Shown here piece by piece: positions 5,202-62,177 of a stretch of 64,000 nucleotides of DNA. The notes under the pieces were generated by a model, which was not told where the DNA came from, ran no database searches, and saw nothing but the letters and a program-made list of their open reading frames with translations. Numbering within the stretch: the first letter of the stretch is position 1; every line of letters starts with the position of its first letter. The DNA is from Desulfobacteraceae bacterium (GTDB lineage: Bacteria; Desulfobacterota; Desulfobacteria; Desulfobacterales; JAABSP01). Both the position numbers and the translations under genes were made by a program. The stretch lies in assembly GCA_011390135.1 (NCBI GenBank), contig JAABSZ010000004.1:130-64129 (forward strand), written 5' to 3'.

Positions 5202-5899
5202 CTTTCGGCTTGGGCCGCGTCCCCGTTGACGAGCGTAATGCTCCGGGACATGTATGCGGCCAGTTCCATGTTATGGGTCACCACCACCATCGCCATTTCA
5301 AACTCCCTGTTCAACTCCTGCAGCAGATCATGGACCTGACGGCTGTTCTTCCGATCCAGGTTCCCGGTCGGCTCGTCCGCCAGCAGCACCCGGGGTTTCA
5401 AGACCAGGGCCCGGGCCAGGGCCACCCGCTGCTGTTCGCCCCCTGAAAGATCCGTCACCCTGTGGAAGCGCCGGTTCTTCAGCCCCACCCGGTCCAGAAG
5501 CGCCTGGGCCCCGGCCTCGGCCTCTTTTTGTTCCATCCCCCGGATGAGCCCCGGCATCATGGTATTCTCCAGGGCAGTAAACTCCGGCAGGAGATGATGA
5601 AACTGAAAGACAAAGCCGATGGTCCTGTTTCGGAAGCGGGCCAGCCCCTCATTGTCCATCTTGAAGATATCCCGGCCTTCGTAGAGAATCCGGCCCCGAT
5701 CGGGCCGGTCCAGCGCGCCGAGAATGTGGAGCAGCGTCGATTTCCCGATGCCCGAGGCCCCCACCACTGCAAGGGTCTCCCCCGGCGCAAGCACGAGATC
5801 GAGACCCGAGAGGATCTCCAGCCGTTCCCCATTGCCGCCGGGCGCGGGATATCCCTTGTGCAGATCCTCGATCTGAATCAGCGGCGCTCGATCATCCAT
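5198..5899 (-). CDS. lolD: lipoprotein-releasing ABC transporter ATP-binding protein LolD
   Basis: Walker A GASGIGKST, signature LSGGEQQRVALARAL and Walker B LLADEPTG. The start is set at ATG 5899 (MDDRAPLIQIEDL), which overlaps the lolC/E stop in ATGGATGA. The track ORF extends further, to 5962. Confidence 0.8.
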   Translation of the reverse strand: MDDRAPLIQIEDLHKGYPAPGGNGERLEILSGLDLVLAPGETLAVVGASGIGKSTLLHILGALDRPDRGRILYEGRDIFKMDNEGLARFRNRTIGFVFQFHHLLPEFTALENTMMPGLIRGMEQKEAEAGAQALLDRVGLKNRRFHRVTDLSGGEQQRVALARALVLKPRVLLADEPTGNLDRKNSRQVHDLLQELNREFEMAMVVVTHNMELAAYMSRSITLVNGDAAQAER

Positions 5900-25124: not shown

Positions 25125-25133
25125 AAGGATTCA

Positions 25134-25258
25134 GGCGGCTTTCCGGAATTGAAATCCCCTGTAAAAAGGACGAAAAAATGGACGGAGTGGACAGAGCGGA
25201 CATAGTGGCGGTTGAAACCCCAAGAGCTTTGCCGGGATCTTCATTTCCGGAATTCACC
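25134..25258 (+). repeat. TIR-bounded intergenic repeat element with 9-nt phased GGAC core (copy A)
   Basis: The ends TTCCGGAATTGAAATCCCC (25141-) and GGGATCTTCATTTCCGGAATT (-25255) are inverted repeats. GGAC occurs at 25168, 25180, 25189 and 25198. The element aligns along its whole length with 45147-45274. Confidence 0.75.
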
Positions 25259-26104
25259 TTACAATACCCCGGGCGGCATGGGGCCCGTCCGCTCTCCGCC
25301 AAGCACATACCCGCCGTCGATCCGCAGCACCGACCCGGTCATGAAGGGCGCATCGGAAATCAGGAACCGGACCGCACGGATAAGATCGTCGATCCTTCCG
25401 AACCGTTCCAGAAGGGTGTGTTCCCGCAGCGCATCCTTCTGCGGATCGGTCAGCAGCCCCCAGCCCCGGGTTCCCTCACCGTGCCGGGTCTCGAAGATCC
25501 CGAGCATGATCTCGTTGACCCGCACCTCGGGGGCCCCCATCCGGGCCCATGTCTCGGTGAGCAGCGAGACCCCCCGGTTGGCCGCGGCATAGCCGTCGTT
25601 GAAGATGATCTGCGCCGGCCCGGACCGGCCCACCATCCCCGCAATGGAGGAGAAATTGATCACGACCCCGTCCCCGGACCGTTTCAGATGGGGCAGGGCC
25701 GCTTCAAAGACCCAGCGCTTTGCCCGGAGAGTTGTCGCCATCTCCAGGTCCCACTGCTCCGGCACATAGGGCCCATGGACCACGGGCCACCCGCCCCGCT
25801 CGATGTTGTTGACCAGGATATCGAGGCCCCCCAGACGTTCCACGGCCCCATCCACCATGGAAAGAATCCTGTCTGATTCGAGAAGATCCGTTCTGAAAAG
25901 GTGGTATTCTCCGCCCGTATCGGCAAAATCTTCCTGCATCCGGGGAATGGCTTCCTCCCAATCATAATAAGTGGCCGCCACCCGTGCCCCCCGGCGAACC
26001 AGATCCAGCCCGATCCCTTTGCCGATCCCCTTGACCGCCCCCAGCACCAGGGCCCGCTTCCCCCCAAGCGCACCCTCCCCTGCCTGCGCCCGCCCCGGAT
26101 TCAT
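25259..26104 (-). CDS. short-chain dehydrogenase/reductase (SDR) family oxidoreductase, atypical active-site string
   Basis: 281 aa with a Rossmann motif LVLGAVKGIGKGIG and NNIE...SSIAG. The YxxxK position reads YAAAN, so the Lys is not in its usual place. Confidence 0.75.
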   Translation of the reverse strand: MNPGRAQAGEGALGGKRALVLGAVKGIGKGIGLDLVRRGARVAATYYDWEEAIPRMQEDFADTGGEYHLFRTDLLESDRILSMVDGAVERLGGLDILVNNIERGGWPVVHGPYVPEQWDLEMATTLRAKRWVFEAALPHLKRSGDGVVINFSSIAGMVGRSGPAQIIFNDGYAAANRGVSLLTETWARMGAPEVRVNEIMLGIFETRHGEGTRGWGLLTDPQKDALREHTLLERFGRIDDLIRAVRFLISDAPFMTGSVLRIDGGYVLGGERTGPMPPGVL

Positions 26105-34949: not shown

Positions 34950-35350
34950 GGTTAAAAGGGGGATAGGGTGAAAGGAGAACGGTGCTGTTTTTTGCCGGAA
35001 GAATGGGCCGGTCATCGGCTGAAGGAAAAGGACGAAAAGGAGAGAGTGGTTTTGGGATCAGATGGATTTGGTCGGCTGGCGGTGTCAGGGGCGGCCTGAT
35101 CGATTCCTTTGTTGAGGTGTAACAGATGGAATCAGAGCTGATGATGATTGGGGCAGATGATAATGGGGTCAAAGGGGAAGAGTTGCCCTTTATGAACGGA
35201 TCTGACAAAAGGGCAAAGGGAAAGAATGGAGAGGGGAAGGGGAGAAGAAAGGTCAAAGCCGTCATAGTCTATACTTATAGCGGTGCGGCCATCTTGGATC
35301 TTCAAGCCACAAACGAAAAAAGGCCGGAAGCAGATGCCTCCGGCCTTTTT
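34950..35350 (+). ncRNA. candidate GGA-rich small RNA (hypothetical)
   Basis: About 0.4 kb with no credible ORF, bracketed by two intrinsic terminators and purine-rich on the plus strand. It has 16 GGA trinucleotides between 34951 and 35315, plus one in the terminator stem, and includes the AAGGACGAAAAGGAG core shared with the dispersed repeat family. Confidence 0.2.
35316..35350. terminator. bidirectional intrinsic terminator (porin gene on minus; candidate RNA on plus)
   Basis: AAAAAA-GGCCGGA(35322-35328)...TCCGGCC(35339-35345)-TTTTT. It lies 33 nt downstream of the porin stop. Confidence 0.75.
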
Positions 35351-45110: not shown

Positions 45111-45146
45111 ATCGTTTTTTCCCTTCTATATCCTTGCTTAATCTTA

Positions 45147-45274
45147 GGCCGTTGTTCGGAATCAAAATCCCCTTTAAGGGGCGAAAAAGTGGACGAAATG
45201 GACAAAATGGACAGAGTGGAGGTCTAAATGAAACCCCACGACCTCTGCCGGGATGTTCATTCCCAAAATTCACC
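45147..45274 (+). repeat. TIR-bounded intergenic repeat element with 9-nt phased GGAC core (copy B), between etfB and etfA
   Basis: It aligns with 25134-25258. GGAC occurs at 45191, 45200 and 45209, and GGAG at 45218, an exact 9-nt period. The ends GTTCGGAATCAAAATCCCC and GGGATGTTCATTCCCAAAATT are inverted repeats. Confidence 0.75.
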
Positions 45275-46053
45275 TAAATGACCTTGGCCTCTTCCCGCAG
45301 AAGACGGACCAGCTCCTCGGCCTTGGCCTGGGGAGAATCCCCCTCGATGATCCTGCCGGCCTTTCGCTCCGGCGGGGGCGTCATCTTAAGGATCTTGACC
45401 TTGGGAGCCACATCCTCCTCCTTCAGTCCGAGATCGGACAGGCTTTTTGTGTCGATCGGCTTCTTCTTGGCTTTCATGATGCCCATCATGGAGGCGTACC
45501 GGGGTTCGTTCAGGCCCCGCTGGGTGGTCAAGAGCGCGGGAAGCGGCGCCTCCATGACCACGGTTCCCCCCTCCACGGTCCGGGTGCATCGGATCTTCTT
45601 CTCCTCGATCTCTGCCTTGATCACCAGTGAGATATTGGGGATGCCCAACAGTTCCGCGACGGCCGGGCCCACCAGATAATTATCATCGTCCACGGCCCGC
45701 TGGCCCGCAAGAATCAGATCATGAGGCATGGTGCGGATGGCAGCCGCAAGGGCTTTGGCAATCCCTAAACCGTCGGCCCCTGCCACAGCGGGATCGTTGA
45801 TCAGAATTCCTTTGTCTGCGCCCATGGCCATTGCGGTTCGAACCGCCTCCTGAGCCTTGTCGGTCCCCGCACAGATGACCGTTACCGTGCCCCCGGATTT
45901 CTCCTTGATCCGGAGAGCCTCCTCCACCGCAAACTCGTCATACGGGTTGATGACCCATTTGACCGCGTCGGTCTTTATCGAAAGGCTGTCGGCCGCGATC
46001 TCGATGAGCGATTCGGTGGCCGGAACCTGTTTGAGCAGTACGATGATATCCAC
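45274..46053 (-). CDS. etfB: electron transfer flavoprotein beta subunit
   Basis: 259 aa, MDIIVLLKQVP..., INPYDEFAVEEALR, with typical EtfB length and layout upstream of etfA. Confidence 0.9.
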   Translation of the reverse strand: MDIIVLLKQVPATESLIEIAADSLSIKTDAVKWVINPYDEFAVEEALRIKEKSGGTVTVICAGTDKAQEAVRTAMAMGADKGILINDPAVAGADGLGIAKALAAAIRTMPHDLILAGQRAVDDDNYLVGPAVAELLGIPNISLVIKAEIEEKKIRCTRTVEGGTVVMEAPLPALLTTQRGLNEPRYASMMGIMKAKKKPIDTKSLSDLGLKEEDVAPKVKILKMTPPPERKAGRIIEGDSPQAKAEELVRLLREEAKVI

Positions 46054-60928: not shown

Positions 60929-62177
60929 CACGCCCCCCCTGCACTTCTCCTATCCTCTCCCTCCCTCCATCCGGTCCTTTTCGTCCTTTTTGTCCTTTTG
61001 GTCCTTTTTTATACTCGGTTTTAAACCCGGTTTTTTCCGCTAAAACCGCCGGCAGCCACACCGTAAACGCAGCCCCCTCCCCCGGCAGACTCTCCACTTC
61101 AATTTCACCGCCATGATTCTTGATGATCCCGTAGCTCACCGAAAGCCCCAGCCCGGTCCCCTCTCCGGTCGGCTTGGTAGTAAAAAAAGGGTCAAAGATC
61201 CGCGGCAGGTTCTTTGCCTCGATCCCGTATCCGCTGTCTTCCACCCGGATCGCCACAAGCCTTTGTTCCCCATCCCACCTTGTGGAAAGGAAAATCCTTC
61301 CGGCCGCTCCCACGGCATGGCGGGCATTCATCATCAGATTCACCAGCACCTGCCGCACCTTCTTCTCATCCAGATATAAGGGCGGCACCGCGGGATCATA
61401 CTCCCTTACAATCTCCACATCCTCCAGCCGGGAGTGGTGACGAATGAAATTTATCCCCTCATCGATGATCTCATGGATCTGAACCATCTCCTTTGCCGGA
61501 GGCGCGCTCCGGGCGAAATTGAGCAGATCCTCCACAATGGCCTTGCAGTTCTTAACATGCTTTTCGATGATCTTAAGATCTTCATATTTCTGGGACTCCC
61601 GATCCTCCCCCCGCAGCAGCAACTGGGTATATCCCAGGATGATCCCCAGCGGGTTGTTGATCTCATGGGCAATCCCCGAAGAGAGCTGCCCGATCGAGGC
61701 CAGCCTGTCCGCCTGGACCATCTGTTTCTCTGACCGGGCCAGCGCCTCTGTCCGCTCCGCCACCAGCTTTTCAAGGTTCTGGTTCATGAAGATCAGTTCC
61801 CCGTGGGCCTCCTGCAGGGCTCTTTTGTCTGAAAGAATCCGGCCGTAGATGCTCCAGATCCGTTCGAAGAAGAGCGTCACCGAGGCCACCAGAATCAGGG
61901 TGAAGGTGTTGATGGTTCCGCTGTATGCAGCGATATCACTCCAGATCTCTTCATGCCCTGCCAGCAGAAGGATCTGCTTTAAAATATGTCCGGCCGACCG
62001 GGAGACCGAAAATGCCCCGAGGCCGTAGCAGACCCAGAGGAGATAGGTCCAGATCAGATTTCCCGGATCTTTCCGCTTGAGCATCCGGACCAGATCGAGG
62101 CAGAGAAATGAGAAGACGATCATCAGCACCGATCCGACCAGATCGACCAGCAGGATGGGAATGGCCGTCACCACCAT
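60903..62177 (-). CDS. membrane sensor histidine kinase (partner of the sigma54 regulator)
   Basis: 424 aa with 4 N-terminal TM segments, an H-box AHEINNPLGII and HATPase_c motifs (DSGYGI, GTGLGLSVSYG). About 45 residues of low-complexity tail follow ...FTVWLPAV. Confidence 0.85.
   Translation of the reverse strand: MVVTAIPILLVDLVGSVLMIVFSFLCLDLVRMLKRKDPGNLIWTYLLWVCYGLGAFSVSRSAGHILKQILLLAGHEEIWSDIAAYSGTINTFTLILVASVTLFFERIWSIYGRILSDKRALQEAHGELIFMNQNLEKLVAERTEALARSEKQMVQADRLASIGQLSSGIAHEINNPLGIILGYTQLLLRGEDRESQKYEDLKIIEKHVKNCKAIVEDLLNFARSAPPAKEMVQIHEIIDEGINFIRHHSRLEDVEIVREYDPAVPPLYLDEKKVRQVLVNLMMNARHAVGAAGRIFLSTRWDGEQRLVAIRVEDSGYGIEAKNLPRIFDPFFTTKPTGEGTGLGLSVSYGIIKNHGGEIEVESLPGEGAAFTVWLPAVLAEKTGFKTEYKKGPKGQKGRKGPDGGRERIGEVQGGRDGADDSHR
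60974..61004 (-). repeat. 9-bp phased GGAC repeat (minus strand AAAAGGAC x4) inside the kinase 3' tail / ntrC-type leader
   Basis: GTCC occurs on the plus strand at 60974, 60983, 60992 and 61001. The repeat translates as KGPKGQKGRKGP in the kinase frame and contains the same AAGGACGAAAA core as 25166-25176 and 35028-35038. Confidence 0.8.

Follow-up and report, generated by a model that had tools for sequence, protein, structure and literature searches.

A probable lineage-restricted MITE with a 9-nt minisatellite core in an uncultured Desulfobacteraceae bacterium

A short intergenic sequence that occurs twice in the analysed DNA is very probably a copy of a lineage-restricted MITE with a minisatellite core, a reading to which we assign a probability of roughly 0.88. 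The window, by which we mean the whole 64,000-nucleotide stretch, corresponds to bases 130-64129 of contig C276 in a MAG of 4.10 Mb (343 contigs, 91% complete, 55.9% G+C). An HMM search of the window returned two full copies only, both on the plus strand. Copy A occupies positions 25134-25258 (125 bp; E = 3e-38, model positions 1-124), and copy B, located in the etfB-etfA intergenic spacer, positions 45147-45274 (128 bp; E = 1e-30). In the preliminary description, these two stretches had been judged to be alike over their whole length, and they do align end to end with a mean column identity of 81%.

Copies are also dispersed through the remainder of the genome. Copy A, used as a BLAST query against its own genome, returned 45 matches, and three rounds of nhmmer at a threshold of E < 1e-3 returned 38, of which about 25 score above 70 bits and are regarded as good copies. 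The further genomic copies anticipated in the preliminary description are thus found, and since they lie on more than 20 contigs, the repeat formed by copies A and B is real, far beyond chance, and not local; the simple segmental duplication named there as a competing explanation is ruled out by this spread. Copy A shares 98% identity with the copy on contig C44 and 97% with that on C225. The repeat family is also present in a sister MAG, Desulfobacteraceae bacterium S15.Bin039.

The aligned copies yield the family consensus (TAA/TTA) GGCGATTTTCCGGAATCAAAATCCC ACTGAAAAGGGACAAA (GAGTGGACR)n GAGTGGAGGC TGAAACCCCAAGACCTTTGCC GGGATCTTCATTTCCAAAATTCACC (TAA/TTA). The element is non-coding and 106-141 bp long, and its interior consists of the 9-nt repeat and ~45 nt of conserved sequence. 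Its ends had rightly been recognised as terminal inverted repeats (TIRs); they are imperfect and ~25 bp long (left, GGCGATTTTCCGGAATCAAAATCCC; right, as the reverse complement, GGTGAATTTTGGAAATGAAGATCCC), and in this genome they occur as inward-facing pairs 106-141 bp apart. Within the family, conservation is highest in the right TIR. When a helix between the TIRs is imposed on 19 copies, its 21 pairing positions are paired in 82.7% of cases. The 9-nt unit has the profile R-A-R-T-G-G-A-C-R and is present ~2-7 times per copy, and the length differences among copies come almost wholly from the number of these units.

In copy A, the left TIR (GGCGGCTTTCCGGAATTGAAATCCC; 25134-25158, plus strand) departs from the TIR consensus at four positions and pairs with 25234-25258 in the predicted fold. 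The latter segment is the right TIR (minus strand; reverse complement GGTGAATTCCGGAAATGAAGATCCC). Between them, sequence and unit profile place the 9-nt array at 25164-25213 (plus strand), where one AAAAGGAC-type unit is followed by three R-A-R-T-GGAC-R units and a degenerate GTGGCGG unit. The array of copy B, read from the sequence, spans 45184-45226 (plus strand). The phasing of GGAC reported in the preliminary description is exact, with a 9-nt spacing, at 25180, 25189 and 25198 in copy A and at 45191, 45200 and 45209 in copy B; a fourth GGAC given for copy B at 45218 is in fact GGAG.

As had been described, each of the two copies runs up to the stop codon of a gene on the minus strand. According to Pfam, copy A lies between convergent genes, one with a CxxCxxCC domain and the other an SDR gene (25259-26104, minus strand), and its right target triplet TTA (25259-25261) supplies the latter gene's TAA stop codon. 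On the left side of this copy, the triplet (TCA, 25131-25133) has one mismatch to the right one. Copy B is flanked by etfB (45274-46053, minus strand) and etfA (Pfam ETF and ETF_alpha), with its GGAC strand antisense to the operon. Its target triplets are TTA on the left (45144-45146) and TAA on the right (45275-45277), and the TAG stop codon of etfB (45274-45276, minus strand) is composed of the last base of the copy and the TA of the right triplet. By the calls of a crude, home-made codon-usage gene caller, ~11 of the 25 good copies abut a stop codon (within 1 nt, with one at -5), seven copies lie between convergent and two between divergent genes, and in co-directional contexts the GGAC strand is sense in six copies and antisense in six, which amounts to no orientation bias. 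That copies abut stop codons, and are tolerated at gene ends, is explained by a TAA target which is duplicated upon insertion.

Evidence for mobility comes from the flanks. Of 17 complete copies, 8 have the same 3-bp triplet on either side (TAA/TAA or TTA/TTA), and in most of the remaining ones the two triplets are one base apart; two internally deleted mini-copies (C299:41228 and C308:4500) have retained TTA on both sides. A 2-bp duplication of TA in the style of IS630/mariner can be ruled out, as it would require TAA on the left together with TTA on the right, a combination that occurs 0 times compared with eight instances of identical triplets. We also compared seven 8-kb loci of S15.Bin039, whose flanking DNA is 85-99% identical to that of our genome, and obtained one clean pair of an empty and a filled site. 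At C176:2097-2099, our genome reads ...CCCGTCCGGC TAA AGAAAAAAAAGCCCGG..., with a single TAA, and the counterpart in S15.Bin039 (L036), with near-identical flanks, reads ...CTGTCCGGC TAA (116-bp element) TAA AGAAAAAAGCCCGG.... Three sites are filled in both genomes and carry unlike numbers of units (for example C95 and L039). One further candidate for an empty site (L043 versus C51) was set aside: although the alignment is interrupted at the element, no synteny remains on its far side. When one genome per GTDB species was scanned for the exact 21-nt right arm, genuine copies were found only in S15.Bin039; elsewhere, the 21-mer matches by coincidence alone in Nitrospira, Verrucomicrobiia and two JGI metagenome contigs, where no element surrounds it, and a wider host range was therefore rejected.

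The preliminary description had offered a MITE as one of its alternatives, and this one is strongly supported by the multiple copies, the TIRs, the 3-bp TWA target duplication and the empty and filled states of an orthologous site. The repeat combines the attributes of a MITE, being short, non-coding and dispersed in many copies, with TIRs, a target duplication and, at one site, an insertion polymorphism; the attribute for which we have no match in this fragmented MAG is an autonomous IS bearing the same TIRs. Points that sit less easily with a MITE are that the 3-bp duplication is imperfect in about half of the copies, that no autonomous parent was found, and that the empty and filled sites form a single clean pair.

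We envisage the element as a non-coding passenger: a DDE-type cut-and-paste transposase, acting in trans, would recognise its two imperfect ~25-bp TIRs and insert it at TWA, mostly TAA, duplicating those 3 bp. In a genome of 56% G+C, stop codons offer a ready supply of TAA, and the duplicated triplet restores the stop, so that insertions at the exact ends of genes are tolerated. The minisatellite of 9-nt GAGTGGACR units would grow and shrink by slippage, which is the presumed cause of the variable unit number and would give rise both to the ~2-7 units per copy and to the unlike counts at orthologous sites.

The ends of the element also occur in other genera of the order. We scanned 200 of the order's genomes for a degenerate TIR pattern, allowing up to three mismatches, and obtained 39 matches in our genome, 51 in a genome from another genus of the same family (G002), nine in G100 and three in G152, with 0 matches for reversed-pattern controls. 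The loci that we fetched contain elements of 125-290 bp with the same ends and TAA/TTA flanks, enclosing unrelated interiors that mostly form long hairpins. Because elements of other genera have like ends and flanks but unrelated interiors, the 125-bp element represents a single lineage-specific family of a broader MITE superfamily in the order that the TIRs define. For the same reason, the ends and the target are the conserved, transposase-facing part and the interior an interchangeable cargo.

The type of transposase can be approached through the target. Elements of the IS5 family (IS1031, IS427 and ISL2 groups) and of PIF/Harbinger have short TIRs and a TA-centred target duplication of 2-3 bp (TNA/TWA). 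Our element likewise has short TIRs and a TA-centred duplication within that size range, and it is this TWA duplication, as the one indicative feature, that points to an IS5/PIF-Harbinger-like transposase. It differs from MITEs of these groups in that our genome holds no transposase of the corresponding Pfam types, and its membership in the family is thus presumptive. PF01609 is absent from this fragmented, 91%-complete MAG; it is present in G152, G100, G002 and G170, and none of the 30 loci fetched there has the TIR. PF13586 is absent from our genome and from four related ones, and PF13359 occurs, among our own and the related genomes searched, in G100 only. There, in a member of a related family, a DDE_Tnp_4 IS of 1,359 bp (L098:1436-2794) has perfect 26-nt TIRs and AAT/ATT flanks; it is a weak lead, sharing with the TIR of our element only a CGGAAAT core and ~12 of 23 positions. 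A search of our genome for TIR pairs 0.6-6 kb apart, as expected for an autonomous parent, found none, with low power in a fragmented assembly that is 91% complete. Given this state of the assembly, the absence of a transposase gene is weak evidence either way.

The preliminary description had also proposed a family of structured regulatory RNAs, in which a closing helix displays single-stranded GGA motifs that sequester a CsrA/RsmA-type protein. The GGA(C) motifs are indeed evenly spaced and predicted to be mostly unpaired inside the terminal helix, AAGGAC is compatible with the loose A(N)GGA motif of CsrA, and several GGA motifs in one short non-coding stretch are reminiscent of the CsrB/RsmZ small RNAs. 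However, PF02599, the CsrA family, has no match in our 91%-complete genome, with E. coli, B. subtilis and T. maritima as positive controls. RNAalifold, applied to 19 complete copies from both genomes, gave -8.7 kcal/mol, did not recover the terminal helix and found 0 compensatory pairs. The imposed TIR helix is paired no better than in shuffled alignments (82.7% of cells compared with 82.4 +/- 0.3%, with 150 of 500 shuffles as high), and four of its positions are mismatched in the majority subfamily. Minimum free energy folds of both copies on both strands are ordinary, with z-scores of only -1.0 to -1.7. No promoter- or terminator-like sites beyond shuffle expectation were detected inside the element, and Rfam returned 0 matches in the window at the gathering threshold, the best sub-threshold hit scoring 16.6 bits compared with a cut-off of 78.3 bits. 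In these respects, as in the lack of csrA and of conserved GGA stem-loops and in the presence of copies on both strands, the element is unlike CsrB/RsmZ. Together with the even split between sense and antisense copies, the negative results for fold, covariation, Rfam, promoter and csrA mean that there is no support for a structured or CsrA-binding RNA. From its target duplication and its empty site, it is evident that the element spreads as DNA. We regard this alternative as highly improbable.

No more credit can be given to a REP/BIME-type extragenic palindrome spread by a RAYT, an IS200/IS605-like tyrosine transposase. The element resembles such repeats in being intergenic, short and multi-copy, often at the 3' ends of genes, and in its capacity to form a hairpin. 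REPs, however, are 20-40-nt palindromes without target duplication. Our element is built differently: 25-bp inverted ends lie ~75-90 bp apart around an interior that is a direct repeat and not a palindrome, the 3-bp target duplication is specific, and the empty site is well defined. We consider a REP origin very unlikely.

Phased GGA(C) motifs do recur beyond the element, as had been claimed, in a form that differs from what had been supposed. Three GGAC motifs at an exact spacing of 9 nt occur 115 times in the genome, whereas other spacings occur 0-11 times, save for 18 nt (25 times), which is the double period, and GGAC ranks first among all 4-mers for 9-nt phasing. The genome contains 73 arrays with at least three units, of which 18 lie within copies of the element and 55 stand alone. 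The units of the stand-alone arrays have the profile N-A-A-W-GGAC-N. Their flanks are unrelated, which rules out that the arrays are pieces of a second, larger repeat family. One of them accounts for a supposed partial copy of the element in the window: positions 60974-61004 (minus strand) hold a four-unit AAAGGAC array (AAAAAGGACCAAAAGGACAAAAAGGACGAAAAGGACC), ~45 nt upstream of the start codon of a response regulator, that is not a copy of the element (HMM E = 0.45). The other supposed partial copy, at ~35020-35050 (plus strand), is a degenerate trace of phased GGA with one GGAC and has no HMM match. The AAAGGAC unit is one base off the Shine-Dalgarno core AAAGGAG.

Arrays of this kind are plentiful in the host family. 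A four-unit pattern matches 47 times in our genome and 84, 44, 110, 68 and 13 times in G002, G003, G005, G007 and G008 of the same family; it is rare in G004 (five matches) and has 0 matches in G001 and G006, also of this family. The 51 genomes examined from the order's other families have essentially no matches. Reversed patterns, used as controls, gave ~0-3 matches per genome, the exception being G021 (23 and 11). In G002, the arrays have the unit NNNGTGGAC and form convergent inverted pairs that fill intergenic gaps; in that sister genus, the same hexamer, laid out as convergent inverted arrays, could form periodic hairpins instead. Our genome has only three convergent pairs, each consisting of a stand-alone array followed by an inverted copy of the element. 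A literature search for described nonamer arrays returned nothing relevant.

The stand-alone arrays sit preferentially just 3' of stop codons, on the sense strand. With array boundaries based on TRF, a stop codon on the 5' side of the array lies within 30 nt in 14 of 25 cases, compared with 3 of 24 for a stop codon on the 3' side (Fisher p = 0.002; Mann-Whitney p = 0.0015). The upstream genes are mutually unrelated, so a dedicated gene beside the arrays is ruled out, and coding or read-through tails were likewise rejected, as the reading frame beyond the stop codon is not constant across loci. Arrays are in some cases traversed by ORFs as (K-G-X)n, but most calls that place an array inside a gene look like artefacts of a longest-ORF caller. 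Searching the assembly for a DnaA-box cluster or oriC revealed none, the one cluster match being a coding 15-nt repeat. The GTGGACA units had been considered as DnaA boxes by comparison with the high-G+C box TTGTCCACA; the AAAGGAC units are unlike DnaA boxes. That arrays originate from amplified excision footprints (TAA plus GG...ACC) is pure speculation.

The resemblance of the element's minisatellite to the free-standing GGAC arrays of the host family makes it most likely, by analogy with a described MITE that trapped a 23-nt repeat (see below), that the array was captured from such a pre-existing array. The order of units fits a capture: inside the element, AAAGGAC-type units come first and GTGGAC-type units follow, as they do in some stand-alone arrays (e.g. 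on C314).

These observations allow a further reading, in which the element remains a MITE and its GGAC array, far from being neutral cargo, serves the host as a functional cis-module: a docking platform for a lineage-specific nucleic-acid-binding protein acting at mRNA 3' ends or on DNA. The 9-nt phasing, the 55 arrays in unrelated surroundings, the abundance in five other genomes of the family (13-110 each) with near absence from the other families of the order, and the polarity relative to stop codons all speak for it, as does the conservation of a core next to two to three positions per unit that vary freely. The MITE might then seed regulatory sites across the genome, in the way that sites for IHF or RNase travel with Correia and ERIC elements, and MITE-borne functional sites do have precedents (PMC10969869). 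Against it, no binding protein has been identified, the number of units varies freely, the genes upstream of the arrays are mutually unrelated, and the genes were called with a crude, home-made program; furthermore, as the element has no orientation bias, a role of its array at the RNA level would be lost in half of the copies. We therefore regard a functional module as possible but doubtful. As a family-wide cis-element, with a core of A-R-W-GGAC and two to three free positions per unit, the 9-nt arrays are putative protein docking platforms, and we propose this function only tentatively. Because the arrays directly follow stop codons on the sense strand, their polarity suggests an action at the mRNA 3' end, such as stability, 3'-end processing or the handling of ribosomes after termination. 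If the arrays are docking sites, the MITE may be the vehicle that captured one of them and copies it to new gene ends.

Among known systems, the closest described analogue of the element comes from Porphyromonas gingivalis. This MITE, BrickBuilt, has IS5-like TIRs around a 23-nt minisatellite of strain-variable copy number; in its authors' interpretation, a MITE took up a direct repeat and disseminated it (Klein et al. 2015; PMC4596501). Both are non-autonomous, have short inverted ends and a layout of leader, tandem minisatellite and tail, occur in about 20 intergenic copies within a narrow host range, and differ in repeat number among copies and, at one locus, among strains. The BrickBuilt unit, however, has 23 nt, can be repeated more than 20 times and extends the element up to ~1 kb, compared with 9 nt, 2-7 repeats and 106-141 bp here. 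Its TIRs match IS5-family ISPg elements in the same genome, for which our element has no equivalent, and its target duplications are inconsistent, whereas the 3-bp TWA duplication is clear in our case. BrickBuilt also carries promoters, and none were detected in our element. Judged by the unlike unit length and TIRs alone, there is no sign that the two are related in sequence.

The Correia elements of Neisseria and the ERIC elements of Enterobacteria are MITEs that can carry sites for host factors, namely IHF or RNase III/E, and they are often co-transcribed with neighbouring genes (PMC10969869). Our element shares with them the small size, the TIR-bounded structure and an intergenic location at TA-containing targets. 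Unlike our element, they have no internal minisatellite, and they differ in their TIRs and hosts and in having demonstrated promoter or RNase effects.

For the stand-alone arrays, a parallel exists in the STRR sequences of cyanobacteria, which are lineage-specific arrays of heptamers, dispersed over many loci per genome, mostly intergenic and of unknown function. The GGAC arrays are similarly lineage-specific, dispersed and mostly intergenic tandem arrays of a short unit at many loci. Their unit, however, has 9 nt instead of 7 nt and combines a fixed core of 6-7 nt with two to three free positions, and they are set apart from STRR by their polarity with respect to stop codons.

Seen as a MITE, the element is ordinary selfish DNA, and a tempting but unsupported annotation as a "CsrA sponge" is removed. 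What is gained is a repeat family with clear boundaries, whose ends are defined, whose target is TWA and whose core varies in unit number; it can be masked in annotation, is usable as a strain marker for this uncultured lineage of sulfate reducers, and accounts for contig breaks in these MAGs; in addition, a TIR-defined superfamily of MITEs is documented across the order. Of wider significance are the free-standing 9-nt GGAC arrays, with their abundance, their restriction to a clade and their stop-codon polarity; they are the more interesting part and are worth following up. If they are indeed binding platforms, the arrays would point to a so far unrecognised level of regulation at gene ends in the host family, and the MITE would be a natural example of a mobile element that spreads such sites.

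Outside the copies of the miniature element (MITE), about 55 free-standing arrays with a 9-nt phase and an invariant GGAC core occur in the whole genome. Their units are mainly of the type (A/T)AAAGGACNN, with GTGGAC or ATGGAC types in some, and examples are found on contigs C8 (2842–2878), C51 (5663–5708) and C314 (12631–12739). These stand-alone arrays favour the sense strand, 1–30 nt 3′ of stop codons (14/25 versus 3/24, Fisher p = 0.002). The window holds one on its minus strand, at 60974–61004 (C276:61103–61133). At a few loci, this one and C224:20020–20050 among them, an ORF extends across an array close to its 3′ end, which would yield a (G-P/Q/R/H-K)n tail such as GPKGQKGRKGP; these tails may either be translated or represent ORF-calling artefacts.

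Three element copies in this genome, and one in the sister MAG S15.Bin039, each lie in reverse orientation downstream of a free-standing AAAGGAC array, about 50 nt away from it (C8:2842–3034, C95:6121–6346 and C332:81–286 here; locus L043:7765–7925 in the sister). No convergent array pairs other than the three on C8, C95 and C332 occur in this genome. An array of the GTCCTTTAC type, with a higher-order unit of ~24 nt, adjoins the site that is empty in this genome (contig C176) and filled by the element in the sister MAG (locus L036). It has several extra units here (C176:~1920–2010) compared with the sister (L036:~5830–5860), and this difference in unit number shows that stand-alone arrays, too, change copy number rapidly.

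The phased GGAC pattern is plentiful in five other genomes of the same family (G002, G003, G005, G007 and G008; 13–110 four-unit matches per genome; example loci L103–L109), and is almost missing from other families of the order. Arrays in G002 have the unit NNNGTGGAC, and convergent inverted pairs of them fill intergenic gaps.

The terminal inverted repeats (TIRs) and TAA/TTA flanks of the element are common to other MITE families (L056–L067, from G002, G100 and G152), elements of 125–290 bp whose interiors differ and are mostly long hairpins. Such shared ends around differing interiors indicate a TIR-defined MITE superfamily that spans the order. Genome G100 also carries an insertion sequence (contig C138; L098:1436–2794) that is 1,359 bp long, is bounded by perfect TIRs of 26 nt and codes for a DDE_Tnp_4 (PIF/Harbinger-type) transposase; its TIR core, ATTATCGGAAAT, bears a faint likeness to the MITE ends.

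A large coding gene contains ~11 units of the 15-nt tandem repeat TCACCTTCATCCACA (C318:12722–12872); the match of this stretch to a DnaA-box cluster is false. In many intergenic regions across the genome, on contigs C142, C9, C224 and C280 among others, the GGAC arrays are adjoined by further short tandem repeats, for example ACCACTGACC, GATGATGAGG, GGGGTTTGGCC and CCGGATGAATAGA. Intergenic micro- and minisatellites appear to be unusually plentiful in this lineage.
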